Origin: an uncultured delta proteobacterium
GTDB taxonomy: Bacteria; Myxococcota; Myxococcia; Myxococcales; Myxococcaceae
Direction of reading: 5' to 3'
DNA length: 64,000 bases
Assembly: GCA_963771175.1 (NCBI GenBank)
Contig: CAVYSY010000024.1
Span: 1-64,000, forward strand
Positions 364 to 30,700 of this stretch are shown piece after piece (position 1 is the first letter of the stretch; each line of letters opens with the position of its first letter). The notes beneath the pieces were generated by a model. The model made no database searches. It saw only the letters and a program-made list of their open reading frames with translations, and was not told the origin of the DNA. The position numbers were made by a program, and so were the translations under genes.

Positions 364-1359
364 ATGGCACGCGAACTCATCGATCTGCACATCCACATGG
401 GCAGCTCCGTAGCTCCCCATGTCCTCTGGTCGCTGGCGCACCAGCAAGGCTTCAAGCTCCCCGTCAAGGACTACTTCGAGTTCGTCGAGCTCATCACCTC
501 GCGCCCCGGCAAGGTGAGCAGCCTCGAGGACTACCTGAAGATCCTCCACACCTGGACGGAGAAGATCCAGAGCTCGCCCATGGCCGTCGAGCGCTCCGTG
601 TACGAGATCATCGGCAAGGAGTACCGCGGCAGCCGCGTCACGCAGATCGAGCTGCGCTTCAACCCGATGAAGCGCAACCTCAACTCGGAGCTCGACCTGG
701 ACCACATCATCCACGCGGCGCTGCGCGGCATGGATCGGGCCATGCTCGAGTACGGAGTGAAGGCGGGCCTCATCTTCTGTCTGGCCCGTGAGTTCGATCA
801 CCGGCTCAACAGCATCCTCGTGGACAAGGCCATCAAGTACCGCAATCGCGGCGTGTACGGCATCGACCTGGCCGGCACGGAGAAGCACGCGCTGGAGCTC
901 GAACCCTCCGTGGTGACGCAGTACGAGGATCTCTTCGCCCACGCTCGCAAGGCCGGCCTCAAGTGCACGGTGCACACCGGGGAGACCCGTGGCACCGGCG
1001 CCGAGGGCGTCATGGCCGTGGTGGAGAAGCTCAAGCCCCACCGCATCGGCCATGGCATCCGTGCCGCCTATGACGAGAAGGCCATGAAGATGCTGCGCGA
1101 GAACAACGTGGTGCTCGAGCTGTGCCCCACGTCCAACCTGCACACCCGCGCGGTGGAGGGGCTCGATGAACTCAAGCACATCATGCGCACCTTCTGGGAC
1201 CGGGGCGTGAAGTTCACCATCAACACCGATGGCACCTACCTCCTGGAGACGGACATGCTCCGCGAGGTGGAGCTCGTCGAGAAGAACGGCCTCCTCTCTT
1301 CCGAGCAGGTGGACCAGACACTCGCCTGGGCTCGCCAGTCCTCCTTCATCCCCGCCTGA
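364..1359 (+). CDS. adenosine/adenine deaminase family protein
   Basis: DLHIH metal motif, ELRFNP, GIDLAG, HTGE, RIGHG, ELCPTSN, INTD. Confidence 0.88.
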   Translation: MARELIDLHIHMGSSVAPHVLWSLAHQQGFKLPVKDYFEFVELITSRPGKVSSLEDYLKILHTWTEKIQSSPMAVERSVYEIIGKEYRGSRVTQIELRFNPMKRNLNSELDLDHIIHAALRGMDRAMLEYGVKAGLIFCLAREFDHRLNSILVDKAIKYRNRGVYGIDLAGTEKHALELEPSVVTQYEDLFAHARKAGLKCTVHTGETRGTGAEGVMAVVEKLKPHRIGHGIRAAYDEKAMKMLRENNVVLELCPTSNLHTRAVEGLDELKHIMRTFWDRGVKFTINTDGTYLLETDMLREVELVEKNGLLSSEQVDQTLAWARQSSFIPA

Positions 1360-1364
1360 GACCC

Positions 1365-2489
1365 ATGTACCGGATCGCCCGCGCCCTTCTCTTCCTCCTC
1401 TCCGCCGAGCGCGCCCACCGGCTGGGGATGACCTTCCTGCGATGGCTCGGGCACCTCCAGGGGCTGTGCCAGCGGATGCGCGCGCGGACGCTCGCCGCCG
1501 TCACCTATGACGCCTCGGTGAAGGTGGCGGGCCTGGAGTTCGTCCACCCGGTGGCGCTCGCCGCGGGCCTCGACAAGGAGGCCGAGGCGGTGGACGGGCT
1601 GCTGGCGCTCGGCTTCGCCGCGGTGGAGGTGGGCACGCTCACCCCGAGGCCCCAGCCGGGCAACCCGCGCCCTCGCCTCTTCCGCATCCCCGAGAACCGC
1701 GCCCTCATCAACCGGATGGGTTTCAACAACCACGGCGCCGCCAATGCCGCCGAGAACCTCCGGGCCCGCACCTGGCACCCCGCCCCGGTGGGGGTGAACA
1801 TCGGCAAGAACAAGGACACGCCGCTGGAGAGCGCGGTGGACGACTACGTGGCGTGCGTGGACACACTGGCCCCGTTCGGGGATTACGTGGTGGTCAACGC
1901 CAGCTCGCCCAACACTCCTGGCCTGCGCAAGCTGCAGGAGCCCGAGGCGCTCGGCGCCCTGCTGCGAGCGGTGAAGGCCCGGCTCACCCAGGTGGCCCCG
2001 GGCAAACCCCTCTTCCTGAAGATTGCCCCGGACCTCACGCCCGAGGCCGTGGACGAGGTGGTGGACGTGGCGCGCGCGTGCGGGCTGGACGGGCTCATCG
2101 CCACCAACACCACCATTGCCCGCCCCTTCGAGCACCCGGTGGCGAAGGAGGCCGGTGGCCTGTCCGGAGCGCCAGTGCGCGAGCCGGCCAACGCAGTCAT
2201 CCGCCGGGCCTATGCGCGCAGCGGGGGCGCACTGCCCATCATCGGCGTGGGTGGCGTCTTCACCGCCGAGGACGTGTACGAGAAGCTGCGGGCCGGGGCC
2301 TCGGTGGTGCAGGTGTACACGGGCTTCATCTACGAGGGCCCGGGCATGGTGCGCCGACTGCTCGAGGGCCTGGGCCCGCTGCTGGCCCGGGACGGCTTCC
2401 GCTCGGTGCGCGAGGCCATCGGCGCGGACCACCGCACCGTGCCGTCAGCCGCCGTGCCCGAGCGCGAGGCGCCGCGTCCCCAGGTCTAG
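1365..2489 (+). CDS. pyrD: quinone-dependent dihydroorotate dehydrogenase (class 2)
   Basis: LAAGLDK, QPGNPRPRLFR, INRMGFNN, NIGKNK, NASSPNTPGLR, GGLSG. Confidence 0.95.
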   Translation: MYRIARALLFLLSAERAHRLGMTFLRWLGHLQGLCQRMRARTLAAVTYDASVKVAGLEFVHPVALAAGLDKEAEAVDGLLALGFAAVEVGTLTPRPQPGNPRPRLFRIPENRALINRMGFNNHGAANAAENLRARTWHPAPVGVNIGKNKDTPLESAVDDYVACVDTLAPFGDYVVVNASSPNTPGLRKLQEPEALGALLRAVKARLTQVAPGKPLFLKIAPDLTPEAVDEVVDVARACGLDGLIATNTTIARPFEHPVAKEAGGLSGAPVREPANAVIRRAYARSGGALPIIGVGGVFTAEDVYEKLRAGASVVQVYTGFIYEGPGMVRRLLEGLGPLLARDGFRSVREAIGADHRTVPSAAVPEREAPRPQV

Positions 2490-16158: not shown

Positions 16159-17216
16159 CGCCGAGGCCTCCGCCTCGGTGTCGAGCGCAGTACCCGAAGA
16201 GCCGCAGCCGGTTCACGCCACCGTGCGGGAAGATGTGCACGCGCACGTGCGTGACGGGCATGGGGTAGCTCGGCTCGAGCTGGTGGCGCCGGTGCTGAAC
16301 GAGCGCCGTCTTGTCCACGAGCACGACGCCAGCCACTCGGCGCGCGGACGGAGCAGCCGCTCGCAGCGCGTCCGCGGACGATACCGCTGGCGTCCAGCGG
16401 CCTCGATGAGCGTCGCCTGCGGCGCGTTGCCCTTGAAGAAGTGCGTGTCGAGCTCGATGCGCTCGAGGACGCCGCGCCGCGCCGAGCCTCACCACGCACC
16501 AGTCGCTGCCCGGCGTGCGCCGCCGCTTCGTCTCCCAGCCGTCGCCCATGTTCACGCCGCGTCCCGGCAGGAGCAGGTTCGACGGCGGGCCGAAGAACTG
16601 GTCGCTCTTCGCCGGCGATGGTGCCGCCGTTCTCGATCGCCGCCAGGTCGACGCTGCCCGAGCGCCAGAACGTGCGCGTCCTCGGCGAGCACGACGCCGT
16701 AGACGCGCAGGCGGGCCACGCCGCCGTCCGGGTAGATGTGCAGCCGCACGTGGGTGACGCGCGGGCTCGCCTTCGCGAGCGCGAAGACGTTCGGGAAGTC
16801 CGGCTTCACCGCGCTCTGGTCGATCAGCGGAAACCACCGGCTCGTCCTCCAGGAGCGTCTGCGCCGGGGTAGCGGTGTACGGCGCCTCGATGCCCTCGAG
16901 GGACGATCTGCTGAGGCGCGTTGCCCTTGAAGTGGGTCGTGTCGACGAGCGCTCCACGCACGCTCCCTGGCGCGCCCAGCCGGATGATGGCGAAGTCGTG
17001 GCCGGGCTCGCGCTTGCGCTGCGACTCCCAGCCGTCCATCCACTTGCCCTTATCGGTGTACTCGCCCTCGAGCCACACCGGAGGGCCCGGCTTGAGCAGG
17101 TTCTCCTTCTCGGCGAAGTAGTCGTCGGTCGCGTAGAGCACGAACGTTCCGAGCAAGTCGGCCGAGAGATCCACGAGTCCCTTGAACTCCACGGGGACGG
17201 GCTGATGCGTCGACAC
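16133..17216 (-). CDS. alc: allantoicase; several frameshifts
   Basis: Two allantoicase repeats spread across frames: WMDGWESQRKR...DTTHFKGNAP...HIYPDGGVARLRVYG and MGDGWETKRRR...HIFPHGGVNRLRLFG. Confidence 0.88.
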
Positions 17217-17219
17217 GGG

Positions 17220-18578
17220 TTACCTCCGAACCGCCACGAAGCGGCCAACAGTGGCCGGGGGCTGGGCGGAGGCCGAGTCATACGCCATCCGGCCGCCCAC
17301 GAGGGTTTTCTTCACCTGTCCGAAGAGCCGCCGGCCGGCGTACGGCGTCACATGGTGCCGGTGGCGGAGGGCCTCGGGTTGGACGTCAAAGCTCGCCGCA
17401 TCGTCCCAGAGGACCAGGTCCGCGTCATAGCCGGGAGCGAGCCGCCCCTTCCGGTCCGAGACACCCACGAGCCGCGCCGGGCCCTCGACGTTCCAGCGGA
17501 GCATCTGCTCCACCGAGTGGCCGCGCGCCCTGGCCAGCGTCCAGAGCACCGACAGCCCGAGTTGCAGCGAGCTGATGCCACCCCACGCCTGGAGGAAGTC
17601 GCCGACCTCCGGCTTCTTCAGCGCGGGCGTGCACGGCGAGTGGTCCGAGACCACCATGGCGATCGTCCCGTCCTCGAGCCCGCGCCAGAGCAGCTCGCGG
17701 TTCTCCGCCTCGCGGATGGGCGGCGCGCACTTGAAGCTCGTCGCGCCCGCGGCGATCTCCTCCGCGGTGAAGGCGAGGTAGTGCAGGCATGTCTCGGCGG
17801 AGATCTGCACGCCGTCCTGTTGCGCGGCGCGGATCATCGGCAGTGCGGAGGCGCTCGAGAGGTGCACGATGTGCGCGCGAGCCCGGTGCTTGCGGCACAG
17901 GTCGATGACCATCGCGATCGCCTCGTCCTCCGCCGAGCGCGGCCGGGAGCGGAGGTACGTGCGGTAGTCGCGCGGATCCTTCCCGGCGACTTCCCGCTCC
18001 GCGGCCTCGAGCGGGCCCGGCGCCTCCGCGTGGACGAGCAGGGTCAGCCCCAGGTCCCGGAGCCGAGGCAGTGCCACCTCGAGGTCCGCGCGCGTGACAT
18101 GCGGGAACTCATCCACCCCGGACGGGCAGGTGAAGCACTTGCAGCCGGGCACGCCGAACTTCGCCAGGCCGTCGAGCGCGTCCACGTTCCCCGGAATCAC
18201 GCCGCCCCAGAACGCCACATCGACGTGCAGCTTGCCCTCGAGCGCCGCGAGCTTCGCCTCGGCCGCCTCGCGGGTGGTGGTCGCGGGAATGCAGTTCAGC
18301 GGCATGTCGACGACGGTGGTGATGCCACCCGCCGCGGCGGCCGCGGTGGCCGTCTCGAAGCCTTCCCACTCGGTGCGCCCGGGCTCGTTGATGTGGACGT
18401 GGCTGTCGACGATGCCGGGCGTGACGAGCAGGTCGCCAGCGTCGAGGACGTTCGCGCCTGGAGCGGGGGCGTCCACCGCCTCCACCTTGGAAATCCTTCC
18501 GTCCTGGATGTGAACCGATGCGGGACGAAGACCCTGCGGCGTGAGCACGCGACGGCCACGCACGATGAACGGCTGCAT
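17220..18578 (-). CDS. allB: allantoinase
   Basis: DSHVHINEPGRTEWEGF, DMPLN, FKCAPPIR, SDHSPC, AWGGISSLQ. Confidence 0.94.
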   Translation of the reverse strand: MQPFIVRGRRVLTPQGLRPASVHIQDGRISKVEAVDAPAPGANVLDAGDLLVTPGIVDSHVHINEPGRTEWEGFETATAAAAAGGITTVVDMPLNCIPATTTREAAEAKLAALEGKLHVDVAFWGGVIPGNVDALDGLAKFGVPGCKCFTCPSGVDEFPHVTRADLEVALPRLRDLGLTLLVHAEAPGPLEAAEREVAGKDPRDYRTYLRSRPRSAEDEAIAMVIDLCRKHRARAHIVHLSSASALPMIRAAQQDGVQISAETCLHYLAFTAEEIAAGATSFKCAPPIREAENRELLWRGLEDGTIAMVVSDHSPCTPALKKPEVGDFLQAWGGISSLQLGLSVLWTLARARGHSVEQMLRWNVEGPARLVGVSDRKGRLAPGYDADLVLWDDAASFDVQPEALRHRHHVTPYAGRRLFGQVKKTLVGGRMAYDSASAQPPATVGRFVAVRR

Positions 18579-18603
18579 CTGTTTTCCCTCCGGGTTCTCT
18601 ACC

Positions 18604-20178
18604 TTACGCGCCGAAGGCTCGGATGAGCTTCACGAGGCCGTCCAGCGTCTTGGCATCCTCGACGAGCGTGGGGTTCGGCGGCATCACCGGGCTCTTCCCC
18701 ACCGCCGCACCGCCCTCCAGGATGATCTTCTTGAGGGCCTCGTCGGAGACGCTCTGCTGCCAGGACTTGTCGTTGAAGTTGCGAGGCTTCGGGTTCAGCG
18801 CCGCCGAGACCGCGCCATCGCCGCCACCCTTCGGACCGTGGCAGGTGCTGCACACGTTGGCGAAGTAGGTGCGCGACGACTCCGGCACATCCACCGCATT
18901 CAGCGCGCTCACCGTCGCGGCATCGGGAGGAGGCGGAGCGGGAATGATCGGAGGCGCGGCCAGCTCGGGCATCTTCGCGCCCTCGGGCACCTGCCCGCCC
19001 TGGGCGAACCACGCTCCGACCAGGGCGCGCTCCTCGTCCGTCATGCCCGTGAGGTTGCCGAGTGGCATCGTCTTGGTGGCCACCGCGCGGACGAAGACGC
19101 GCTCCGCGTGGGAGCGGATGGCGTCCGGCGTGTTCAGGATGATGCCCTGCGGCGGCGCGGGGAACATCGGGCTCGAGGGGCGTGCCGCGTGGCAGGTGGC
19201 GCAGCGGGTCTGCATCACGGAGGCCACCTCCTCGAACTTCACCTGCGGCTTGCCCGCGAACTGCTCGAGCGCGGGATCCGGAGGCGGCCGCGTCAGCACC
19301 ATCACCCCGAGGAGCGCGAGGGCCGTGCCCGCCCACGTCACCGGCGGCGTCCTGGTGCGGAAGTTCATCGCGTACTTCAGCCCCACGCCGACGATGAACA
19401 ACAACCCCAACACCAGCCACGGCCGCGAGCTGCCGTAGGTGCTCGGGAAGTGGTTGGAGATCATCGTGAACAGCACGGGCAGCGTCAGGTAGTGGTTCTG
19501 GATGGAGCGGCCCTTGGCACGCAGGCCGTAGCTCGTATCGACCGGCTTGCCCTCGCGGGTCATCGCGAGCATGTGCCGTTGCGCCGGGATGATCCGGAAG
19601 AACACGTTCGCGGCCATGATCGTGCCGAGCGTGGCACCCACCTGGAGGAACGCGCCGCGGGCGCTGAAGACGCGGGTGAGCGCGTACGCCAATCCGGTGA
19701 TCAGCACGAGCCCCACCGCGGCGAACGCCCGGTTGTTCTTCGACAGCGGCGTCCTCCAGAGCAGCTCGTACACGCCGTACGCGAGCGGCAGGAGGCCCAG
19801 GCTGATGGCCAGCGCCTGCGCGTGGGTGAGCGGGTAGACGCTCGGATCAATGAGCAGCGACGCACCGTTGAGGTGGAAGACGATGACGAGCAGCAGGAAG
19901 CCGCTGATCCACGTCGTGTAGCTCTCCCACTTGAACCAGTGGAGCGTGGCCGGCAGCTCGCCCTGGGCGAGCGACTTGCGCTTCACCACCTCGTAGAAGC
20001 CGCCGCTGTGGGTCATCCACAGCTCGCCGGTGACATCGCCCTCGCGAGGGCGGCTCGGAGCGGTGAGGTGGCTGTCGAGCCACATGAAGAGGAACGAATC
20101 TCCAATCCACATGATGGCCGCGATCACATGGACCCAGCGGACCAGGAGGTTCAACCATTCTTGGAAGACGGCGTACAT
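18604..20178 (-). CDS. puuD: membrane urate hydroxylase PuuD with two C-terminal c-type cytochrome domains
   Basis: RWVHVIAAIMWIG, HSGGFY, LHWFKWESYTTWISG, NHYLTLPVLFTMISNHFP. Heme motifs CATCH and CSTCH. Confidence 0.9.
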   Translation of the reverse strand: MYAVFQEWLNLLVRWVHVIAAIMWIGDSFLFMWLDSHLTAPSRPREGDVTGELWMTHSGGFYEVVKRKSLAQGELPATLHWFKWESYTTWISGFLLLVIVFHLNGASLLIDPSVYPLTHAQALAISLGLLPLAYGVYELLWRTPLSKNNRAFAAVGLVLITGLAYALTRVFSARGAFLQVGATLGTIMAANVFFRIIPAQRHMLAMTREGKPVDTSYGLRAKGRSIQNHYLTLPVLFTMISNHFPSTYGSSRPWLVLGLLFIVGVGLKYAMNFRTRTPPVTWAGTALALLGVMVLTRPPPDPALEQFAGKPQVKFEEVASVMQTRCATCHAARPSSPMFPAPPQGIILNTPDAIRSHAERVFVRAVATKTMPLGNLTGMTDEERALVGAWFAQGGQVPEGAKMPELAAPPIIPAPPPPDAATVSALNAVDVPESSRTYFANVCSTCHGPKGGGDGAVSAALNPKPRNFNDKSWQQSVSDEALKKIILEGGAAVGKSPVMPPNPTLVEDAKTLDGLVKLIRAFGA

Positions 20179-20301
20179 GGGGCGGGACTCTACCTCGTTT
20201 CCCCCCGGGTTCCGAGGGGGAACCCCGGCACATGAGAGGACGGGGACCCTGTTGAAGGGGGAAAAGGTGGAGCCGGAAAAAGCGAGCCTCCCTCAAGCGG
20301 G

Positions 20302-21006
20302 TCAGGGTTGAAGCGGATGTTCATGGGGCGCGAGCCCTACCTCCGCGCTCTCCCTCGAACCACGGCACGGCAGCGGGGAGATCGTGAGCGTGGTGCATGG
20401 ATTCATTTCCCGGGCCGGGGGATGAGCTCGTCCCCGGACGAGCACCGCGGGCAGACCCGGCACCTTGAGGAACTCGACGTGCGTGGGGCGCGGCGTCACT
20501 TCAGGCCAGCCGGGCCTCGCGAGGGCCTCCAGCAGCTCCGTCACCGGGTACTGGAAGGACTCCACTCGCGCGGCTCCCACCAGCGGCTCCTGCCCCCACG
20601 CGAGCGCGATGCGCAGCCGCTCGCAGCGCGCCAGCTCCGGCACGTACACGGGCAGCCCCGCCGGTGCGCTCCGCTCCAGGTAGCGGCAGAAGGAGACCGC
20701 CTCCTCACGGTTGAGCAATTCCGGCAGCACGTCCGCCAGGAAGCCCTCCAGCACCGCGCCGAGCTCGGGCCGCAGCGCCGGGTCCACCCACGGCAGGTGC
20801 TCACGAACCCGCGTCACCCGGTGGTGGTCCATCAGCCTCCCGGCGCGCTCCACGTCCACCCTGTTGATGCGCGCCAGCCGCTCGCGCTCCTCGGGCGCCA
20901 GTGACAGCGCGCCGAGCGCCTCCGGGGCGTCTCGCAGGTAGGACGCACGAAAGCGCGGATCCACGTGCAGCCGCGCCAACACCTCGAGCATCTGTGGGTA
21001 GCCCAT
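20302..21006 (-). CDS. putative MNIO partner protein (DUF2063/HvfC-like role); 3' end uncertain, possible indel near 20430
   Basis: Directly downstream of DUF692. LARLHVDPRFRASYLRD N-terminus and YVPELARCE motif. Confidence 0.6.
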   Translation of the reverse strand: MGYPQMLEVLARLHVDPRFRASYLRDAPEALGALSLAPEERERLARINRVDVERAGRLMDHHRVTRVREHLPWVDPALRPELGAVLEGFLADVLPELLNREEAVSFCRYLERSAPAGLPVYVPELARCERLRIALAWGQEPLVGAARVESFQYPVTELLEALARPGWPEVTPRPTHVEFLKVPGLPAVLVRGRAHPPAREMNPCTTLTISPLPCRGSRESAEVGLAPHEHPLQP

Positions 21007-21022
21007 TCTCCGCTCCTCATGT

Positions 21023-21853
21023 TCAGGCTGCGTGTGCACCGTGGCGACGGAGGATGGCGCGGGCTCGCGCCAGCTCCTCCACCAGCCTCTCGAAGGGCGG
21101 GAAGTTGCTGTCCATCTCGAAGTTCACGCCCCGCACCGGACAGCGCGGCGCCACGTACTCCAGCAGCCGCCACACCTCCTCTGGCGAGCACTCCGAGTGG
21201 CTGTCCAGCCGCAGCCCCTCCATCGTCGTGCCGCCCGCGAGGTGAATCTGCACCACCCGCTCCAGCGGCAGCTTCTCCAGATAGCGGTACGGGTCGAACC
21301 TCCGGTTCACCGCGTTGCAGTGCAGGTTGTGCAAGTCCAGCAGCAGCCCGCAGTCCGCCTCCGTCACCACGCGCCGCAGGAAGTCCGCCTCGTCCAGCGT
21401 GGACTGCCCGTCATCAAACAGCCAGGCGATGTTCTCCACCACGAAGGGCCGGCCCAGCTCCGCCTGCACCCGGCGGATGTTGCGCACGCACGTCTCCAGC
21501 GCCTCCTCCACCCGAGGCACCGGCGTGAGGGCGCGCAGCGGCAGCCCGCCCACGCGCGTGAAGCACAGGTGGTCCCCGTGCCACACGCTCTTCGTCAGCC
21601 GCGCCACCCGTTCCACCCCCTCGCGGTAGCCCGGCGCGTCCACCCCGTCCGAGCCCACTGACAGCTCCAGGCTGTGACCCGCAATCGGGAAGCGCCTCGC
21701 CAGCAGCTCCAGCCGCCGCTGCGCATCCTCCGTGAGCGGCAGGAAGTGCTCCGGTGTCACCTCCAGCCAGTCCACGCCCGGGTTGCCTCGCGCCAGGTGC
21801 GGCTGCAACTCCCAGCGGTAGCTCAGCCCCACTCCAATGAAGGGAATGCCCAT
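21023..21853 (-). CDS. DUF692 family multinuclear non-heme iron oxidative enzyme (MNIO)
   Basis: DWLEVTPEHF, GHSLELSVG, GDHLCF, VENI, LLLDLHNL, QIHLAGG, DSHS, FEMD. Confidence 0.92.
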   Translation of the reverse strand: MGIPFIGVGLSYRWELQPHLARGNPGVDWLEVTPEHFLPLTEDAQRRLELLARRFPIAGHSLELSVGSDGVDAPGYREGVERVARLTKSVWHGDHLCFTRVGGLPLRALTPVPRVEEALETCVRNIRRVQAELGRPFVVENIAWLFDDGQSTLDEADFLRRVVTEADCGLLLDLHNLHCNAVNRRFDPYRYLEKLPLERVVQIHLAGGTTMEGLRLDSHSECSPEEVWRLLEYVAPRCPVRGVNFEMDSNFPPFERLVEELARARAILRRHGAHAA

Positions 21854-21866
21854 GGCCCGCCTCCTC

Positions 21867-22700
21867 TCACGCCTTGCGGCGCGCCATCACTTGCAGGTGC
21901 TGACCCGTTGCCGCGAAGCCCTCGTGCGCCATGCGCTCCTGCAGCGCGAGGATTTCGTCGCGCGCCGCCCACGCGTCGAACTCCGGCCCGCGCGCGGCCT
22001 TCATCGCCTCCAGCAGCTCGAAGAAGAGGACGGGCTTGCCGAAAATCTCCTCCACCTCGGCACCCGCGGCCTTCACCGCCTCGTGCAGCTCCTTGAGGGT
22101 GAAGGCGTGCACCGGCAGCCCGTAGGGGCACTTCGTCCTGCCCGTCAGCAGCGTGGCGAGCGCGTCCGCGGCCTTCACGTACTTGAGCGTCCCCACGAAG
22201 GCCTCGTAGCGGTTGTCCACGCCCATCACCACCGGGCCGCCCGGCACCACCACGCGCACCAGCTCCCGAATCGCGCGCGGGTACTCGTCCAGGCAGTAGG
22301 AGACGGGATCGCCCTCGCAGAACACCAGGTCGAAGGACTCGTCCGCGAAGGGCAGCTCCACCACGTTGCCCACCACGAAGCTCGTGCGCTCCAGCAGGCC
22401 CGCCCGCGTGAAGCCCGCCCGCGCCCGCTCCAGCATGCCCGGAGAGATGTCCAGCACCGTGACGCGGTGTCCTCGCTCGGCGAAGCGTGTGCCGTACTTG
22501 CCTCCCCCACCTCCGGCGTCCAGCACGCGCAAGGAGCGCCCGTCCATGGGCAGCAGCTTCTCCACCGCCGTCCACGTCAGGTGCTCGTAGGCGAGCCAGA
22601 AGAGCTTGAGCGCCACCTGCTGCGGGCTGGCCTGGTCGTACTGCGGGGACACCTCGTCGTAGCGGCTGCTGATGGCGGCTGGGGTGATGACGGCACTCAT
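21867..22700 (-). CDS. class I SAM-dependent methyltransferase
   Basis: VLDAGGGGG motif I, LDISPGML, LPFADESFDLV, VPGG. Confidence 0.9.
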   Translation of the reverse strand: MSAVITPAAISSRYDEVSPQYDQASPQQVALKLFWLAYEHLTWTAVEKLLPMDGRSLRVLDAGGGGGKYGTRFAERGHRVTVLDISPGMLERARAGFTRAGLLERTSFVVGNVVELPFADESFDLVFCEGDPVSYCLDEYPRAIRELVRVVVPGGPVVMGVDNRYEAFVGTLKYVKAADALATLLTGRTKCPYGLPVHAFTLKELHEAVKAAGAEVEEIFGKPVLFFELLEAMKAARGPEFDAWAARDEILALQERMAHEGFAATGQHLQVMARRKA

Positions 22701-22720
22701 GGGCGGGGCTCCAGAGGGGC

Positions 22721-24817
22721 TCAATAGTTGAAGGAAACCTTGGTCAGCAGCCGGCGCTCCTGCGCGCCGTTGAAGGGCTGGTCCGAGTAGACGACGAAGA
22801 TGTCGCTCCACTGCCGGTAGTGCCAGCCGACCACCGCGTCGAGCAGGGTGCCTTTCACGTTGCTGTAGTCGGCCAGATCCGTCACTGCGCCATGTTGGAA
22901 GGTGAGGCGCGCGTAGAGGTCCGGAGTGAAGTGGTAGCGCAGCTGCGCGTAGCCGGACAGCGAGTAGCCGTCGCCCGCGGTGCCGTACAGCGGGCTGTGC
23001 TCGGGCACGCCCTTGCTGCGAGTGTAGAAGCCGCTGAGGCGGGCCACGAAGCGCGGGCCAATCTTCAGGTTGAGCGCGCCGTTGAGGCCCTGGATTTCTC
23101 CGCCGAGGAACCTGCCGCCCAGCGCCGTGAGCGTGAAGCTCTGCCAGTCGTGCGGGAAGAGGGTGAAACCCACGGTGGCCACGCGATTCTTGAAGCCCTC
23201 GTTGTCGTCGTAGATGCCGTCCAGGTAGAGGGCGAAGTCGTGGTGCAGGTAGGGCTGGAGGTTGACCCGCTGGCGGTAGCGCGTGCGCTCGTGCGCGTGG
23301 TTGCGCCGCCACAGCGAGTCCCACGTCGCGTCCAGCCGCGGCAGGAAGCGCCACTTGGGGAAGGGGTTGAGGTAGAGGTGCGTGTTCCAGCCCTGCTTGT
23401 CCGTCACCGGCGTGAAGCCCAGCGGGTTGGCGTAGTTCTTCCCGATGTCCTCGAGCTGAATCCAGAACTCGGAGAGCGTGTCGAAGCGGTGGATGCCCAG
23501 GTGGAAGGCCTCGGAGCCGGAGTTGCCCAGCGGACTCCAGCTCTTGGCGGCCTGGGCCTGGATGAACACCTCCTCGAAGAGGTGGATGTTGGCGTCGAGC
23601 CCCACGACGCTGAAGCGCGCGTCGCCCTCGCGGTTGAGGCCGGTGACGCTCAGGGCCGAGCGGTTGCCCAAATCCTGCTGGAGACGCACGACGCCCGAGT
23701 TGACGTCCTCGTAGGTGCCGTCGCCCCGGTCATCGCGGTGCTGCACGTCCAGCAGCGCGAAGCCCAGCCCGCCCTTCTTGCCGGTGAGCTGCACGCCGCC
23801 CCACACCCTGTCATGGGGACGCAGCGCGATGCGGCGCGAGGTGAACATCTTGATGGGCGTGATGAAGAGCTGCTCGCTCTCCACGAAGAAGGGACGGCGC
23901 TCGGGCAGCAGCGGCGCCTCCTGGTCCAGCAGCAGCCGGTCCTGGTCCGCGTCCGCGTCCGCGAAGTCCGGGTTGGCCGTCAGCTTCAGCGCCAGCCACG
24001 ACGTGGGGTCGATGCGCGCGTCCGCGCCCACGTTGGGCCGGAAGAAGCCGCGACCGTCGCTCGACTTGAGCGCGAGCTGCGTGGAGACGTACGGCGTGAC
24101 GCTCCACGTGGCACGCGGGCGGATGCCCTTGAGGCCCGTGAGGTGCGGGTAGCGCGACACCTTCGCCGAGTTCACCCCGTCCGGCGTCCAGTTGCTCCAC
24201 TCCTGGGTGCGGTACTGCTCCCGGTCCAGGAGCATGCCGAACGTCATCTCCTCCTGCTCCGCGAACTGGAAGTTGGCGAAGGGGATGCGGATTTCGGAAA
24301 TCCACCCGTCCTCGACGATCGTGGCCTTCGTCTCCCACTCGCCCTTCCAGTTGGTGGAGAAGGCCTCGCCGTCATCGACAATCCGCCCGTCGGTGCGCAC
24401 GCCCAGCGGGTTCGTCCAGAAGTAGTAGGCGTTGCGGTGGTCCAGGAAGGTGTCGAGGATGACGGTGATGTTGTCCTCCTGGTGGAGGAAGCCCTCGTTC
24501 TGGACGGTGTAGGCCGTCACCCGATCCGGGTTCGAGTCGATGCAGTGGAAGGCGAAGTAGAGGTTGTCCTTGTCGTAGAGGATGCGGACCTTCGTGTCGT
24601 CCTTGACGGGCCGGCCGTAGTCGACGCGCGTGAGGTACCAACCGGAGATTTCTGGCGCCGCCTGCCAGGCGGGGTCGTCCAGCTTGCCGTCGATGGTGAT
24701 GGGCTGGTCCGTGTAGGTAGCCTTCACCTGATAGGTGGATTCGGCGTGCGCCAGCACCGGCAGCAGCGCGGCGAGCAGCGCGGCGCCCCAGCGACAGGCG
24801 GGAGGAGAGGGATTCAT
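22721..24817 (-). CDS. DUF5916-type outer-membrane protein with an N-terminal CBM9-like domain
   Basis: Signal peptide, PITIDGKLDDPAW, LDTFLDHRNAYYF, LTANPDFA, LPERRPFFVE. Ends in aromatic residues (SFNY). Confidence 0.8.
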   Translation of the reverse strand: MNPSPPACRWGAALLAALLPVLAHAESTYQVKATYTDQPITIDGKLDDPAWQAAPEISGWYLTRVDYGRPVKDDTKVRILYDKDNLYFAFHCIDSNPDRVTAYTVQNEGFLHQEDNITVILDTFLDHRNAYYFWTNPLGVRTDGRIVDDGEAFSTNWKGEWETKATIVEDGWISEIRIPFANFQFAEQEEMTFGMLLDREQYRTQEWSNWTPDGVNSAKVSRYPHLTGLKGIRPRATWSVTPYVSTQLALKSSDGRGFFRPNVGADARIDPTSWLALKLTANPDFADADADQDRLLLDQEAPLLPERRPFFVESEQLFITPIKMFTSRRIALRPHDRVWGGVQLTGKKGGLGFALLDVQHRDDRGDGTYEDVNSGVVRLQQDLGNRSALSVTGLNREGDARFSVVGLDANIHLFEEVFIQAQAAKSWSPLGNSGSEAFHLGIHRFDTLSEFWIQLEDIGKNYANPLGFTPVTDKQGWNTHLYLNPFPKWRFLPRLDATWDSLWRRNHAHERTRYRQRVNLQPYLHHDFALYLDGIYDDNEGFKNRVATVGFTLFPHDWQSFTLTALGGRFLGGEIQGLNGALNLKIGPRFVARLSGFYTRSKGVPEHSPLYGTAGDGYSLSGYAQLRYHFTPDLYARLTFQHGAVTDLADYSNVKGTLLDAVVGWHYRQWSDIFVVYSDQPFNGAQERRLLTKVSFNY

Positions 24818-26103
24818 CCTTGCTCCGGGGTGGGTTGCAGGAGGGAAGCAGCGGCGGAGGGCTCCCGCACCCGCGCCATGCCGGCGAGGGCCGCGAGGAA
24901 CGCTCCGGACGACAGGAAGAAGGCGGCTCGCAGCGAGAGGTGCTGCGCCAGGAAGCCGTAGGTGACGGGCGCCACCATCTGCGCCAGCGAGGCGCACGCG
25001 GCGAGCGCCCCCATGAAGCGGCCGCGCTCCTCGCGCGGGCACACCTCGGCGAAGAGCGCCGGCAGCGAGGGCCGGAAGAGGCCGTCCGGCACCGCGAGCA
25101 GCGCCCACGTCAGCGCCAGGGCCGCCAGGGCATAGGGCGCCGGCAGCCCGCCCACCGCGCCCATGGACAGGCTGAGCACCACCAGGCCCACCAGCCCCGC
25201 GGTGATGAGGCCGCCGCGCCGCGAGAGGCCGTCCGACAGGCGCCCGCCCACCGGCTGCACGAAGGCGAAGACGAGCCACGAGGTGGCGATGAGTGGCCCC
25301 ACCCACTCCTGCGGCGCGCCCAGGCGCGTGGCGTAGAGGGGCACGTAGATCGGGTAGAGGTTGAGCGCGAAGCTGAAGAAGAACTGGAAGACGAAGAGGC
25401 CGCTCAGCGCGGGGAAGCGGCGCATGTACTCGAGGGGCGCTACCAGCCCGCGCACGGCGAGCCGCAGCGCCTCGGCGGCCCGGGGCTGACCCTCGGTGCG
25501 CGGCGGGGCCTCGGTCTCGCGGAGGCCAAAGAGCACGAGGCTCCCCCCGAGGAAGAGCGCGCCGGCGAGGAAGAAGACGCGCTCCACCGACAGCCAGCGC
25601 ACCGCCGCGGACGAGGCCACCAGCGCGGCCACGAAGGTGAGGTTGCTGGCGCTGTCCAGCAGCGCGAAGACGGTGGCCCGCTGTCTGGGTGGCGCGAAGT
25701 CGGCCACCATGGCGCTGGAGACGGGCGAGGCGCTGCGCACCATCAGCAGCTTCAGCGACAGCACCGCCGCCAGCGCCACCGCGTTGGCCGTCAGCCCCAG
25801 CATCGGCACCAGCAGCGAGGTGCCCAGTGACAGCCCCACCACGAAGCGCTTGCGCCCGAAGCGGTCCGAGAGCGCCCCCAGCACCGGCTGCGCGAAGATC
25901 GGCAGCACCGACGCCAGCGTGAAGACGACACCGATGCCCTGCAAGTCCAGCCCACGCGAGCTGAGGAACACCGGCAGCACCGGGTTGAGCAGCCCCGAGG
26001 CGAGCGTGCCCAGCAGCCCGGAGAACAGCAGCACCCGCAGGTTGCCCAGGCCCCGCGTCAGCTCATACATCTCGCGCAGCGCGCGTGCGCCCCGGGCAAT
26101 CAT
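24814..26103 (-). CDS. MFS transporter
   Basis: About 12 hydrophobic segments and GALSDRFGRK (motif A). ATGA overlaps with both neighbours. Confidence 0.9.
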   Translation of the reverse strand: MIARGARALREMYELTRGLGNLRVLLFSGLLGTLASGLLNPVLPVFLSSRGLDLQGIGVVFTLASVLPIFAQPVLGALSDRFGRKRFVVGLSLGTSLLVPMLGLTANAVALAAVLSLKLLMVRSASPVSSAMVADFAPPRQRATVFALLDSASNLTFVAALVASSAAVRWLSVERVFFLAGALFLGGSLVLFGLRETEAPPRTEGQPRAAEALRLAVRGLVAPLEYMRRFPALSGLFVFQFFFSFALNLYPIYVPLYATRLGAPQEWVGPLIATSWLVFAFVQPVGGRLSDGLSRRGGLITAGLVGLVVLSLSMGAVGGLPAPYALAALALTWALLAVPDGLFRPSLPALFAEVCPREERGRFMGALAACASLAQMVAPVTYGFLAQHLSLRAAFFLSSGAFLAALAGMARVREPSAAASLLQPTPEQG

Positions 26104-26711
26104 GACGCGCGCCCCTCGGACGCTCCGGTCTTCGGGCCCACTCCGAGGATGCGCTCCACCGCCGCGACGAGGTCTGGCACCGGCCGCACCTCCAAGGCCG
26201 TGAGCGGCTCGGCCGTGAAGCCGCTGCCCTCGGGAACCCACATGGGCACGCGCCCCGCGCCCGGGTGCACCTGGCGCACGTAGGCGTCGGCCACCTCCAG
26301 CTTGCCCTGGAGGTACTCACGCGGCGCGGGCACCAGCGCCTGCTGCCCGTCCAGCACCACGCCGGTGGCGAGGAAGGGCGAGGGCAGTGCGCGGCCCGAC
26401 AGCAGCGCCACCCATGCGATGAAGATCGGCAGCGACGCGCTGCGCCCGTCCAGCGTCAGGCCGCGCCCCTTGGGTGACACGAAGAAGTCCGTCTCGTCCC
26501 AGGGCAGCGCATAGCGCGCGCGGCCGAGCGCCCCGAGGTGCTGCACGTGGCGCTGCCAGGCCGGCGCGTAGCCATTGTCTCGCGAGAGGTCCACCCAGGC
26601 TCGACCGGTTCCGGGGCGCACCGCCACTTCCACGGCCACGGGCCGGAACACGGAGCGGCCGCCGAGGTCCGCGTGGGTGAAGAGCAGCAGGGGTGCTGTC
26701 GTCGGAGACAT
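26100..26711 (-). CDS. stand-alone Lon-like (S16) protease domain protein
   Basis: DGRSAS (cf. Lon DGPSAG), ATG 25 residues after the Ser (cf. Lon MTG) and a Lys 46 residues after it (QGKLEVA). RPGTG near the N-terminus. Confidence 0.6.
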   Translation of the reverse strand: MSPTTAPLLLFTHADLGGRSVFRPVAVEVAVRPGTGRAWVDLSRDNGYAPAWQRHVQHLGALGRARYALPWDETDFFVSPKGRGLTLDGRSASLPIFIAWVALLSGRALPSPFLATGVVLDGQQALVPAPREYLQGKLEVADAYVRQVHPGAGRVPMWVPEGSGFTAEPLTALEVRPVPDLVAAVERILGVGPKTGASEGRAS

Positions 26712-26740
26712 GGCTCGGGGCGCGGGGAGGGACGGGGGAG

Positions 26741-26780
26741 GAAAAACAACGGGCGAGGAGGGGCATGCCCCTCCCCGCCC
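26741..26780 (-). terminator. intrinsic terminator/attenuator hairpin right after the RiPP precursor gene
   Basis: Minus strand GGGCGGGGAGGGG-CATG-CCCCTCCTCGCCC followed by GTTGTTTTT. Confidence 0.7.
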
Positions 26781-26789
26781 AGACAGCAA

Positions 26790-26882
26790 CTAGGCCGCGA
26801 TGATGACGGTGCCCATGCCGTTGCTGCAGGTGCACTTGTCGGAGGTGGCGGAAACGCGGACGATCTGGGCCTTGACGTACAT
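26790..26882 (-). CDS. putative RiPP precursor peptide, 30 aa: MYVKAQIVRVSATSDKCTCSNGMGTVIIAA
   Basis: ATG preceded by AGAGG, GC-rich third codon positions, a CxC motif and a downstream hairpin. Lies between the RRE and protease genes. Confidence 0.75.
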   Translation of the reverse strand: MYVKAQIVRVSATSDKCTCSNGMGTVIIAA

Positions 26883-26948
26883 GGTGGACCTCTGTGTTTG
26901 GGGTTGAGTCCGCCGCCTTGAGACAGACTGTCTCCCGGCGACGGTGTT

Positions 26949-26972
26949 TGTATGTGCCAAATGGCACACACA
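26949..26972. promoter_or_regulatory. palindromic operator-like site upstream of the precursor
   Basis: TGTGCCA-AA-TGGCACA perfect core at 26953-26968, extendable with one mismatch. Confidence 0.45.
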
Positions 26973-27056
26973 TCTGGGGAGCCTCCAGGCACGGCACGGC
27001 CATGGGCGGCGCACGCGCCCGGAGGACTCACAATTCCTTTCAGTGCTGCTCGCGAC

Positions 27057-27338
27057 CTACTTCGCGGGGGGCTCGCAGAGACCGAGGTCCTGGAACGTGC
27101 GCACCGTCACCAGCACGTCCTCTCGGATTTCGGCCTCCTGGCCGGAGACATCGAGGCGGGCCACGATGGACTGCACGGCGCCCTCGAGCGTCGTCCCGCT
27201 CTGGCAGAGGGAGAAGATGCTCGCGGCGGTGGCGTTGATGTTGAAGACCTCGCCCGCCTCCGTGTCCAGGAGGAACCAGGCATCCTCTTGCTGCTGTACA
27301 ATGACGCCCGGCACGGGCCGGGGAAGCAACTCAGCCAT
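27057..27338 (-). CDS. stand-alone PqqD-family RiPP recognition element (RRE)
   Basis: 93 aa: LLDTEAGEVFNINATAASIFSLC...IVARLDV...IREDVLVTVRTFQDLGL. GAGGAGG RBS. Confidence 0.85.
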   Translation of the reverse strand: MAELLPRPVPGVIVQQQEDAWFLLDTEAGEVFNINATAASIFSLCQSGTTLEGAVQSIVARLDVSGQEAEIREDVLVTVRTFQDLGLCEPPAK

Positions 27339-28923: not shown

Positions 28924-30303
28924 TCAGGCGCCTGCGCCGGGCTGCCGCTCGCCCCGGACGAGCACGTTGAACTTCATGCTCGGCCCGGGCGTCGGGGTCG
29001 TCTTGGTCTCGAGCACGTAGTCCGGCGGATCGAGCGCGAGGTCCAGCTTGTGGAAGAGCCGCGCCATGGTGAGCGACATCTGCACCTCGGCCAGGCTCTT
29101 GCCCAGGCACGTGTGCGGGCCTCGCCCGTAAGGGGAGTAGACGCCGGGCTTCAGGTGCTCGGCGCGCGGCCGCGCGTAGCGGTCGATGTCGAACTTCCCC
29201 GGGTTCGGGAAGTACTCCTCCATGAAGTGCGGCACGGAGGTCGCCGCGAACAGCAGCTCGCCTTCGCGGATTCGATGCCCGCAGAACTCGAAGTCGCGCG
29301 TGGCGGTGCGCATCTGGGCGACGGCGATGGGATAGAGCCGCATCGTCTCCATGACCGCCCCGTCGATTGACGGAATCTTCTTGAGATCCTCCTCGGTGAT
29401 CGAGCCCTGGGCGAAGAGCGCGTCGGCCTCGCGCTTCACGCGCTCGAGCACCTCGGGGTGCTTGAGCACGGAGTACACGAAGGCCGAGACCGTATTGGCC
29501 ACCGTGTCGAGCCCGGCGACGAACGGCCCGGTGAGGTTGAGGATCAGATCGCTGCCCGGGATCAGCTCGGGGTCGTGCTTGTTCGCCTCCATGATGTCGT
29601 CGACGAGGTTGCGCTTCGCCGGCTCGCGCGTGCCCGCGGCGACGCTCGCCTCGTAATCGGCGATCATCTTGCGCCCGAGCTCCTCGACGCGTGCCTTGGC
29701 CCGCTGGTAGCGCGGGTCCTTGAGCAGGAACCGCGGCCGCTGGCGCGTGACCAGGACGTTCAGGATGTAGAGGATCGTCGTGCGGATGTCCTTGACGTAC
29801 TCGCGCGGCGACTGACCCACGATCATGGCGCCGAGCTGCTCGGTGACGATGTACTGCATCGCCTGCAGCACCGGCACCTTCCCACCGACGCGCCAGTCTC
29901 GGGCGAGCACCTGGTCGGTGATGGCGATGAGCTCGTCGTAGCGGCCCTTGATCGAGTCCTTCGAGTAGCCGTGGCGCATGACGGTGCGCAGCTTGTTGTG
30001 CAGCTCTCCGTCCACGCCGGTCAGCGTCTTGCTCGCGCCGTACTCGTTGACCAGGCCCTCCCAGAACTCCTTCGAGCGCAGGCTCTCGCGGCCCTCGCGC
30101 GTGCCCATGAAGTTCGCGGCCTCGACGCCAGCGATCACGGCATAGGTGGTGCCCAGCAGGTTGACGCGGAACACCGGCCCATACTCGCGATAGCAGCGGA
30201 CGAAGAACCTGGCTGGATCCTTCGCCATCTCCAGGGTGTTGCCGATCAGCGGGATGCCGCGGACGGGGCGCGGCTCTTTCAGGACGGGGGCGGTGGTTTC
30301 CAT
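28924..30303 (-). CDS. cytochrome P450
   Basis: AGLDT (I-helix), ETMR (ExxR) and the heme motif PYGRGPHTCLG. Confidence 0.93.
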   Translation of the reverse strand: METTAPVLKEPRPVRGIPLIGNTLEMAKDPARFFVRCYREYGPVFRVNLLGTTYAVIAGVEAANFMGTREGRESLRSKEFWEGLVNEYGASKTLTGVDGELHNKLRTVMRHGYSKDSIKGRYDELIAITDQVLARDWRVGGKVPVLQAMQYIVTEQLGAMIVGQSPREYVKDIRTTILYILNVLVTRQRPRFLLKDPRYQRAKARVEELGRKMIADYEASVAAGTREPAKRNLVDDIMEANKHDPELIPGSDLILNLTGPFVAGLDTVANTVSAFVYSVLKHPEVLERVKREADALFAQGSITEEDLKKIPSIDGAVMETMRLYPIAVAQMRTATRDFEFCGHRIREGELLFAATSVPHFMEEYFPNPGKFDIDRYARPRAEHLKPGVYSPYGRGPHTCLGKSLAEVQMSLTMARLFHKLDLALDPPDYVLETKTTPTPGPSMKFNVLVRGERQPGAGA

Positions 30304-30700
30304 GGGGTGCGTTTCGTTGATTTCGCGAGGGTGGGGGCCCCCCGAACAGGTGTCAAACACTTCGTACGGACAAGCACTTCGTACACGGCTGATGCGTCGC
30401 ATCCCGTACAACGTGCCTGACACCTTCCCAGCACTCGAAGGGCGGACCCATTCACCCGCGCCCCTCTCGCCGAGCCGTCCAGGTGAACGGCCGCCATGAC
30501 CCTCGCCCTATTGCGCGGCCCTCACATCCGAGACCCCCCCACCACGAGACCGGCGCCTGCACCCCTGCTGTGGTGCCGCTCGACTGAGCCGGATTGGAAC
30601 CAGGAGCCCAGTTGCGGCGCTCTCGAATCGTGGTGCCCATTCTGACGAATGAGGAAGCACCACCCGAGTTCTTCGAAGGCACGACGAAAGGACGGCCATC

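Follow-up and report, generated by a model that had tools for sequence, protein, structure and literature searches.

MNIO (DUF692) enzymes are a fast-growing source of unusual peptide chemistry. The substrate of TglH is a Cys appended to the C-terminus of a scaffold peptide. Captophorins, bufferins and oxazolin are 5-thiooxazole metallophores that go with BufB-, HvfB- or FonB-type MNIOs and a DUF2063 'PME-type 1' partner. Lys-Cys motifs (E-G-K-C-G) are the substrates of the MNIOs that form 5-thiooxazole, these enzymes depend on a catalytic Asp, and 5-thiooxazole has a UV band near 305 nm (PMC13097082). Homologues of ChrH, from the chryseobasin system, exist in Myxococcota (PMC13056109), and finding the small precursor genes has been named as the main obstacle in the MNIO field (PMC12452194). 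In this study, we analysed a stretch of 64,000 nucleotides (the window) from an uncultured delta proteobacterium assigned to the Myxococcaceae (GenBank assembly GCA_963771175.1, contig CAVYSY010000024.1, positions 1 to 64,000), in which a peptide of 30 amino acids (aa) had been proposed from the letters alone as the easily missed precursor of a DUF692/MNIO cluster (hereafter the original prediction). The gene is real, is under selection as a protein and is linked to the operon that follows it, and it is likely the genuine precursor gene of a ribosomally produced peptide with post-translational modifications (RiPP) made by the operon that it heads.

The reverse complement of positions 26790-26882 reads ATG TAC GTC AAG ... 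GCG GCC TAG and translates to MYVKAQIVRVSATSDKCTCSNGMGTVIIAA, followed by the stop. Residues 1-23 form a conserved module that includes D15-K16-C17-T18-C19 and M23, and residues 24-30 (GTVIIAA) make up the variable tail. As the original prediction had it, without stating the strand, the frame is nested in a longer open reading frame (ORF) listed at 26790..27014 (-), which gives 74 aa from a GTG start, and it has a Shine-Dalgarno sequence of its own six bases before its ATG (Table 1). G or C occupies the third position in 28 of the 29 sense codons after the ATG, and the frame-specific G+C content at third positions (GC3) is 0.97 and 0.90 in two 90-nt segments over the ORF, which resembles the high-GC3 coding ORFs elsewhere in the window (0.8-0.98, at a window GC of 68%) and bears out the host-like codon usage claimed for it.

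Conservation was assessed in 201 genomes sampled from the same family, the window genome included; one of these (G049), flagged as unpublished, bears no claim. Searched with the single peptide, 47 genomes gave a match at E<=1 and 29, among them the window genome with its single copy (E 7.9e-15), at E<=3e-6, the E-values in the other 28 ranging from 3e-6 to 3e-11. The remaining 18 single-sequence matches (E 0.135-0.998) were dismissed as chance. True matches form tandem arrays of 1-9 copies with a spacing of about 130-220 nt, and the loci (L001-L029) yielded 84 peptide ORFs. Among the 75 unique ones, a single ORF is 181 aa long, and the other 74 are single-unit peptides of 30-39 aa. In an alignment of 39 sequences M1, Y2, R9, D15, C17 and C19 are invariant, and I7, V8, V10, A12 and M23 are conserved in at least 90%. 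In the N-terminal Y-x-x-x-x-I pattern singled out at the outset Y2 is invariant and I7 nearly so, and its proposed likeness to the lasso YxxPxL motif would be a mere analogy. Variation of the cysteines had been named as one of the points on which the proposal could fall, and C17 and C19 proved constant in 77/77 nucleotide-distinct copies; the binding of metal by Cys and Met, also suggested at the outset, would be speculative. Beneath the fixed residues the third codon position varies: entropies at positions 1/2/3 over these 77 copies are 0/0.39/0.90 for V8, 0.10/0/1.47 for V10 and 0.10/0/1.46 for A12, GC3 is 0.94, and the ATG and the stop are conserved. A Shine-Dalgarno sequence, mostly CAGGAGAA, stands at the same distance in the 40 listed upstream regions of homologous copies. 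Read at the sequence level, third-position variation under fixed residues together with the conserved Shine-Dalgarno sequence are marks of a translated gene under purifying selection.

A profile built from the 39 sequences reaches E-values of 1e-14 to 8e-20, and in a search of 401 genomes of the phylum its strong matches were confined to the family (30 of 171 genomes, plus the window), none falling below E 1e-3 in the 229 genomes of other families. Two matches outside the family (E 0.004 and 0.007, covering 11-15 profile positions) were attributed to chance. The tails after M23 are hypervariable: 67 different ones occur among the 74 single-unit peptides, with 7-16 residues rich in V, T and A. 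Of these 74 peptides, 57 close with E and 11 with Q, and the 'AA' ending of the window peptide is found in only 2. The peptide matched no family in Pfam (E<=10) or NCBIfam (E<=1), and in the ESM Atlas its top scores of 0.76 gave no lead; the 181-aa homologue, compared with shorter proteins, had 513 word-sharing candidates and none at E<=0.001. An exact-sequence lookup in a collection of 15 billion proteins returned 4 of 10 homologous peptides, the 30-aa product of the window among those present; the other 6 of 10 are missing and the named ones are called 'hypothetical protein', so the gene was aptly described as easily missed.

Six genes lie downstream of the peptide gene (Table 1), joined by two ATGA start/stop overlaps and otherwise separated by gaps of 13-20 nt, and judged from this arrangement the peptide gene and the six genes form one same-strand operon. 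The order and strand, namely peptide gene(s), Lon-like gene, MFS, DUF5916, methyltransferase, MNIO and partner, are identical in 18/18 fetched 20-kb contexts and in 2/2 further contigs, and the conservation beside homologous clusters that had been put forward as a check is thus borne out, the peptide heading the operon in 20/20 contexts. A single set of 29 among the 201 family genomes has the peptide at E<=3e-6, and it is these genomes that also have the Lon-like protein (E<=4e-75) and the MNIO ortholog (at least 77% identity). MNIO homologues as such are found at E<=1e-20 in 171/201 genomes; identities of 77-100% are met only in the 29 genomes with the peptide, and the next-best MNIO paralogue is at most 48% identical. 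The core of the original prediction, a real precursor belonging to a DUF692/MNIO cluster, is upheld by this one-to-one occurrence of peptide, MNIO ortholog and peptidase. Named records with a neighbouring peptidase gene were all from Myxococcaceae (19/19 loci) and comprise Archangium gephyra, many Corallococcus species, Myxococcus sp., Pyxidicoccus caerfyrddinensis, Citreicoccus inhibens and metagenome-assembled genomes (MAGs).

Table 1. Features of the peptide gene and its operon in the 64,000-nt window
Feature	Position	Strand	Basis
Precursor peptide gene, 30 aa + stop	26790..26882	minus	translation = MYVKAQIVRVSATSDKCTCSNGMGTVIIAA; homologues; profile alignment; codon-level selection
Shine-Dalgarno AGAGG	26889..26893	minus	six nt 5' of ATG at 26882
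Terminator/attenuator-like hairpin, then TTGTTTTTCC	26750..26781	minus	pattern scan; minimum free energy (MFE) fold
Stand-alone Lon (S16) proteolytic-domain-fold protein, 203 aa, putative peptidase	26100..26711	minus	fold and profile evidence
MFS transporter, 429 aa	24814..26103	minus	PF07690 E 4.7e-46; start overlaps peptidase stop (ATGA)
CBM9-like/DUF5916 protein, 698 aa	22721..24817	minus	PF06452 E 3.6e-7, PF19313 E 7.6e-6; start overlaps MFS stop (ATGA)
Class I S-adenosylmethionine (SAM)-dependent methyltransferase, 277 aa	21867..22700	minus	PF13649 E 5.9e-22, PF08241 E 1.1e-20
MNIO (DUF692) enzyme, 276 aa	21023..21853	minus	PF05114 E 7.3e-76
MNIO partner protein, 234 aa	20302..21006	minus	TglI-like fold

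The MNIO falls short of the NCBIfam models to which it comes closest, scoring 199 bits against BufB (cut-off 310) and 180.5 bits against HvfB (cut-off 360). Among solved structures it matches 3bww best (E 2.7e-44), followed by TglH (8.6e-30), the second-best solved MNIO, and MbnB (2.7e-10). The catalytic-base Asp (D248; role of this Asp from PMC13097082) and residues of the metal-ligand type are invariant in 11/11 sequences and align with 3bww, D248 with the Asp of its E-R-D-F stretch. The partner carries no DUF2063 Pfam signature even at E<=10, and a profile search with it against PDB gave 0 matches at E<=10. Its AF2 model (pLDDT 78.7) has a helical N-domain and a short, beta-rich C-domain with a strand-helix-strand-strand arrangement at 146-191, which in the model is RRE-like and a candidate leader-binding domain. 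The best structural match of the partner is to chain A of the TglHI holoenzyme entries (Foldseek, 8hi7_A, E 2.8e-4; VIA Z 10.4, rmsd 4.0, 200 residues aligned), and since chain D of these entries is the DUF692 protein, chain A should be the partner TglI; NGO1945 (VIA Z 7.6 over 126 residues) and MbnC (Foldseek E 1.9-3.0, VIA Z 4.9) come behind. Judged from the model, the protein would correspond to the 'PME-type 2' partners set out in PMC12452194. A complex prediction of the MNIO, residues 1-192 of the partner, the peptide and 3 Fe gave an ipSAE of 0.02 in both runs, which, made without controls, says nothing either way.

Three minor features of the partner were also seen. It runs 42 residues past the end of all 9 aligned relatives (...V-P-G-L-P-A-V-L-V-R; 20302-20430 (-), pLDDT <50); over its residues 1-63 it is similar to Os1348, a protein of the NHLP clan (VIA Z 7.2, 62 residues aligned; NCBIfam NF038399 at E 1.6e-4, below cut-off); and its N-terminal helices also resemble a segment of OphA-type peptide methyltransferases (VIA Z 5.3-6.8).

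The 203-aa product of the gene that follows the peptide has no Pfam match at E<=10, the Lon_C signature included, and no NCBIfam match. A profile of 11 orthologues searched against PDB returned 13 matches, all of them Lon and all weak (E 0.2-1.1), in which an invariant D-G-R-S-A-S aligns with the catalytic-Ser motif and S91 with the residue that is the catalytic Ser in E. coli Lon, an Ala in the 1rr9 chain. All 11/11 orthologues keep S91 and K137, the latter within an invariant Q-G-K-L; the correspondence of K137 to the catalytic Lys of Lon was placed by eye rather than by alignment. The AF2 model (pLDDT 83.5, pTM 0.84) superposes on the proteolytic domain of E. coli Lon (3wu3_A, Foldseek E 1.4e-9, TM 0.70/0.74), and the 27 listed Foldseek rows are Lon, Lon-like, RadA or BrxL protease domains. 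On this evidence the protein is a stand-alone Lon-fold domain lacking the ATPase part and a plausible processing peptidase. We found no description of a Lon-type RiPP peptidase in the literature full text, a search whose scope excluded subscription journals and bioRxiv supplements. Further along the operon, the MFS transporter is syntenic in all contexts, and the DUF5916 protein, 70-90% identical in relatives, has a hydrophobic N-terminus when viewed by eye and may take part in passage through the envelope. The best NCBIfam models for the methyltransferase are CmoM and BioC, both carboxyl O-methyltransferases, far under cut-off; candidate sites for it are the frequent C-terminal Glu or a modified Cys.

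How this cluster relates to the described MNIO systems can now be considered. It holds a PF05114 MNIO with its partner, the presence of the peptide tracks that of the MNIO ortholog, and the peptide has conserved Cys, features generic to MNIO RiPPs; the cluster belongs to this broad kind and falls outside the methanobactin, captophorin/bufferin and chryseobasin groups. In sequence the window MNIO is nearest to the captophorin/bufferin group, the catalytic Asp is conserved, and a Lys-Cys dyad is shared, within D-K-C-T-C here and E-G-K-C-G there (PMC13097082). However, the enzyme lies below the BufB and HvfB cut-offs, and the partner is without DUF2063 and more TglI-like. The window-family precursors of 30-39 aa differ as well, with no Sec signal peptide (for which there is no room), no DUF2282 and no EGKCG repeats, carrying instead a single D-K-C-x-C, and the cluster lacks DoxX and has a Lon-fold peptidase, an MFS pump, a DUF5916 protein and a methyltransferase. 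At the specificity positions the window MNIO has W14 and S249 in the place of Arg and Phe. The TglHI/TglA system (3-thiaglutamate, pearlins) provides the best structural match of the partner and the second-best solved MNIO and likewise has a precursor without signal peptide, but the invariant Cys of the window family lie inside the peptide, and the last residue is mostly Glu or Gln, only 3 peptides from orphan arrays ending in Cys.

The methanobactin system (MbnA/MbnB/MbnC) shares a precursor of about 30 aa without signal peptide and with Cys near the C-terminal half, an MNIO that goes with a helical partner, and a cluster with transport genes of its own. In contrast, the MNIO scores 30.9 bits against the MbnB equivalog TIGR04159 (cut-off 325), no MbnA or MbnC model matches, MbnC is a weak fold match to the partner (Z 4.9), and the window precursor is not adjacent to the MNIO, has hypervariable tails and comes in tandem arrays. 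A likeness of the N-terminus to methanobactin leaders was set aside, as no model or search backs a resemblance to MbnA. With chryseobasin (ChrH/ChrA) the window peptide shares two close Cys followed by Gly-Met, and S-methylation is part of that pathway (PMC13056109). In contrast, the ChrH equivalog gives 61.3 bits (cut-off 600) over only positions 114-248 of 363; the window MNIO has 276 aa, which with the partial match indicates that the C-terminal helical bundle said to define ChrH is missing; and the motif is C-x-C-x-x-G-M here and C-P-x-C-G-x-G there, CPxCGxG occurring in 0/75 unique peptides. Cyanobactin- and prochlorosin-type pathways follow the logic of multi-core or combinatorial RiPP precursors. 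The window family resembles them in its many paralogous precursors per enzyme set, its hypervariable regions and a 7-unit precursor, but its repeat holds the probable modification site itself, and the enzymes are unrelated.

The 7-unit precursor, from a MAG record (L016:1423-1965 (+)), is one ORF of 181 aa with 7 repeats that replaces the tandem array and is followed by the same operon (L041). The repeat unit reads ...A-E-I-K-R-V-S-A-T-T-D-K-C-T-C-S-N-G-M plus 5-8 variable residues, and judged from its sequence the ORF represents a multi-core form of the precursor. In this register, [A/S][E/Q] at positions 5-6 of the single-unit peptides matches the A-E that closes most tails, and cleavage after the [A/S][E/Q] dipeptide, after K16, or after both is conceivable.

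Other copies depart from the common array. Second, orphan arrays of 3 peptides lie beside an SDR-like ORF in two genomes (L060:6700-7150 and L061:6700-7120 (-)); their tails have two extra Cys and are Cys-terminated, e.g. ...M-S-T-T-T-C-S-G-L-I-Q-S-D-C. In L017 (peptide ORFs 569-1438 (-)), 7 ORFs with a period of 128 nt give an identical MYIQSE...VILSTDQVAQ peptide, and the array looks like a recent tandem amplification. In two Corallococcus-type loci (L010:1346-1834 and L011:1346-1834 (-)), a divergent third peptide ORF, M-x-x-K-...-V-R-C-I-A-S-S-[G/D]-R-C-M-C-C-G... (E about 0.2 to the query), stands between the array and the peptidase gene, retains R9, C17 and C19 and carries further cysteines.

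Between the stop of the window peptide and the peptidase gene lies a hairpin (Table 1) of 14 bp with 11 G-C pairs and a 4-nt loop. In 27 of the 29 loci a 75-nt stretch after the last peptide gene folds into a strong hairpin (MFE -28 to -50 kcal/mol); this gene is the peptidase-proximal one wherever the peptidase gene lies in the locus, and the spacers within most arrays fold weakly; the two exceptions have a further, divergent peptide ORF at that place. The hairpin is probably a partial terminator that raises the precursor-to-enzyme ratio.

Which residues are modified and how, where the peptide is cut and what the product does are inferred from the genes at hand. By analogy the operon has a RiPP-like layout, with structural gene(s), a peptidase, an exporter, tailoring enzymes and an MNIO/partner pair. 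The peptide would be translated from its own Shine-Dalgarno sequence, the hairpin probably keeping precursor mRNA above enzyme mRNA, and its N-terminal module (Y2, I7-V8-R9-V10 and A12) would dock on the MNIO/partner heterodimer. The MNIO might then oxidatively remodel one or both Cys of the invariant D-K-C-x-C; our best guess is a Cys-derived heterocycle, e.g. the 5-thiooxazole that the sequence-nearest MNIOs form on Lys-Cys motifs. The SAM methyltransferase would add a methyl group, the stand-alone Lon-fold Ser/Lys peptidase would trim the peptide, and the MFS pump, perhaps with the DUF5916 envelope protein, would carry it out of the cell. The hypervariable, V/T/A-rich and usually Glu-ended tail would make each paralogue a different product.

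Several observations weigh against this reading. Some 5 kb separate the peptide gene from that of the MNIO, unlike the majority of described MNIO clusters, in which the precursor stands immediately upstream of the MNIO (PMC12452194). The cysteines sit in the conserved part, and the split between conserved part and variable tail does not by itself fix the leader/core boundary, thus the logic of a conserved leader and a variable core fails to place it. Residue 21 is N in 29 and G in 35 of the 74 unique peptides, so that Asn21, which had been offered as a possible MNIO target, is unlikely to be an obligatory one. The MNIO is under the curated cut-off of every named NCBIfam MNIO equivalog, and its chemistry is thus not transferable from them; W14 takes the place of the second Arg of 3bww and S249 that of its Phe, positions corresponding to the substrate-adjacent residues (second Arg and Phe250) of FonB, and these substitutions at specificity positions would fit a different substrate motif. 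The contigs that carry the orphan arrays of L060 and L061 measure about 8.8-8.9 kb and are devoid of cluster genes, so the linkage is not absolute, and in the L017 genome the Lon-like peptidase frame holds an in-frame TGA. The window hairpin is unexceptional for its GC content (MFE z -1.68; 9 of 200 shuffles fold as well). Two candidate public RNA runs, with 5-6% of sampled words, gave short and mostly partial contig pieces over 20300-27100; depth in the peptide bin was 1.5 (X20) and 0 (X19), and no listed piece lies on the peptide.

These points leave room for other explanations. The peptide might be a real bacteriocin or signal that stays unmodified or gains no more than a methyl group, is trimmed by the Lon-fold protein and leaves the cell through the MFS pump, with the MNIO and its partner acting on another protein of the cluster or on an unlinked substrate. 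Its place next to the peptidase and transporter genes, yet 5 kb from the MNIO, speaks for this, as do the orphan arrays, in which peptide genes sit apart from the enzymes. However, the seven genes are together in 20/20 contexts, and none of the 201 genomes searched has the MNIO ortholog but lacks the peptide; the two Cys are invariant, and Cys is the usual MNIO target (PMC12452194); and because the gaps are only 13-20 nt, there is no room for another small precursor gene beside the MNIO. We consider this explanation unlikely. A short ORF that precedes the first enzyme gene and has a terminator-like hairpin with a T-rich run directly after it would also suit a regulatory leader peptide whose translation, together with the hairpin, attenuates transcription of the operon without a stable product. 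Such a role would leave unexplained the 1-9 tandem copies with hypervariable tails, the 7-repeat ORF, the orphan arrays elsewhere and the invariant Cys, Asp, Arg and Tyr, which makes it highly improbable. Since spurious ORFs are common in GC-rich genomes, with 153 ORFs of at least 25 aa in 14 kb here, and the public RNA runs offer fragments only and no expression support, a chance open frame or a conserved non-coding element was weighed too. It is scarcely credible in the face of third-position variation under fixed residues, a conserved ATG, stop and Shine-Dalgarno sequence, a GC3 of 0.94 over 77 copies and profile E-values down to 8e-20. The precursor reading thus remains the one we favour.

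A description of the peptide family was found neither in Pfam and NCBIfam nor in the literature full text or supplements covered, a scope that excluded subscription journals and bioRxiv supplements. The 2025 MNIO landscape paper (PMC12452194) has no 'myxo' term in its text, though its figures or Fig. S3 alignments might include the cluster under a numbered group, and the supplement text searched has 0 occurrences of four genus names. It is possible, but we put it forward only tentatively, that the precursor represents a new RiPP class, in which the MNIO, the TglI-like partner and the methyltransferase would make a distinct warhead at D-K-C-x-C...M, borne on hypervariable tails and released by the Lon-fold protein. 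This warhead would differ from 5-thiooxazole, oxazolone/thioamide and chryseobasin products, and the tails would amount to a natural library, up to 9 per genome plus the 7-core single precursor. The cluster brings together a captophorin-like MNIO, a partner of the TglI type, a peptidase with the Lon fold and a separate methyltransferase, which makes new chemistry and a new type of RiPP protease plausible. The family offers a clear signature, defined cluster borders and natural variants as a ready-made substrate panel for reconstitution, among them 67 tails, the multi-core form and the orphan arrays with extra cysteines. While its chemistry is inferred, the cluster is a good lead for genome mining, with unusual parts in its tandem precursors with hypervariable tails, their multi-core form and the Lon-fold peptidase, and its patchy distribution in predatory Myxococcaceae, together with the tail diversity, suggests a role in competition, signalling or metal handling.

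Five genes flanking the cluster in the window (urate-oxidase-like, two small ORFs, P450 and AHSA1-like) were queried and had no match in the contexts of relatives, which sets the cluster borders. Directly downstream, purine-catabolism-type genes at 16824-20178 (-) encode an amidohydrolase, an allantoicase repeat and a fusion of cytochrome c with a urate oxidase N-terminal domain, and are not kept beside the cluster in relatives. On the other side, 2 kb upstream of the peptide, the same strand encodes a cytochrome P450 (PF00067, E 4e-55; 28924-30423 (-)), which adjoins the cluster in none of the 18 contexts and is probably unrelated. The window genome also carries a second MNIO paralogue (G000:C19:21910-22725 (+)), 37% identical to the window MNIO, which is probably part of another, bufferin-type cluster.

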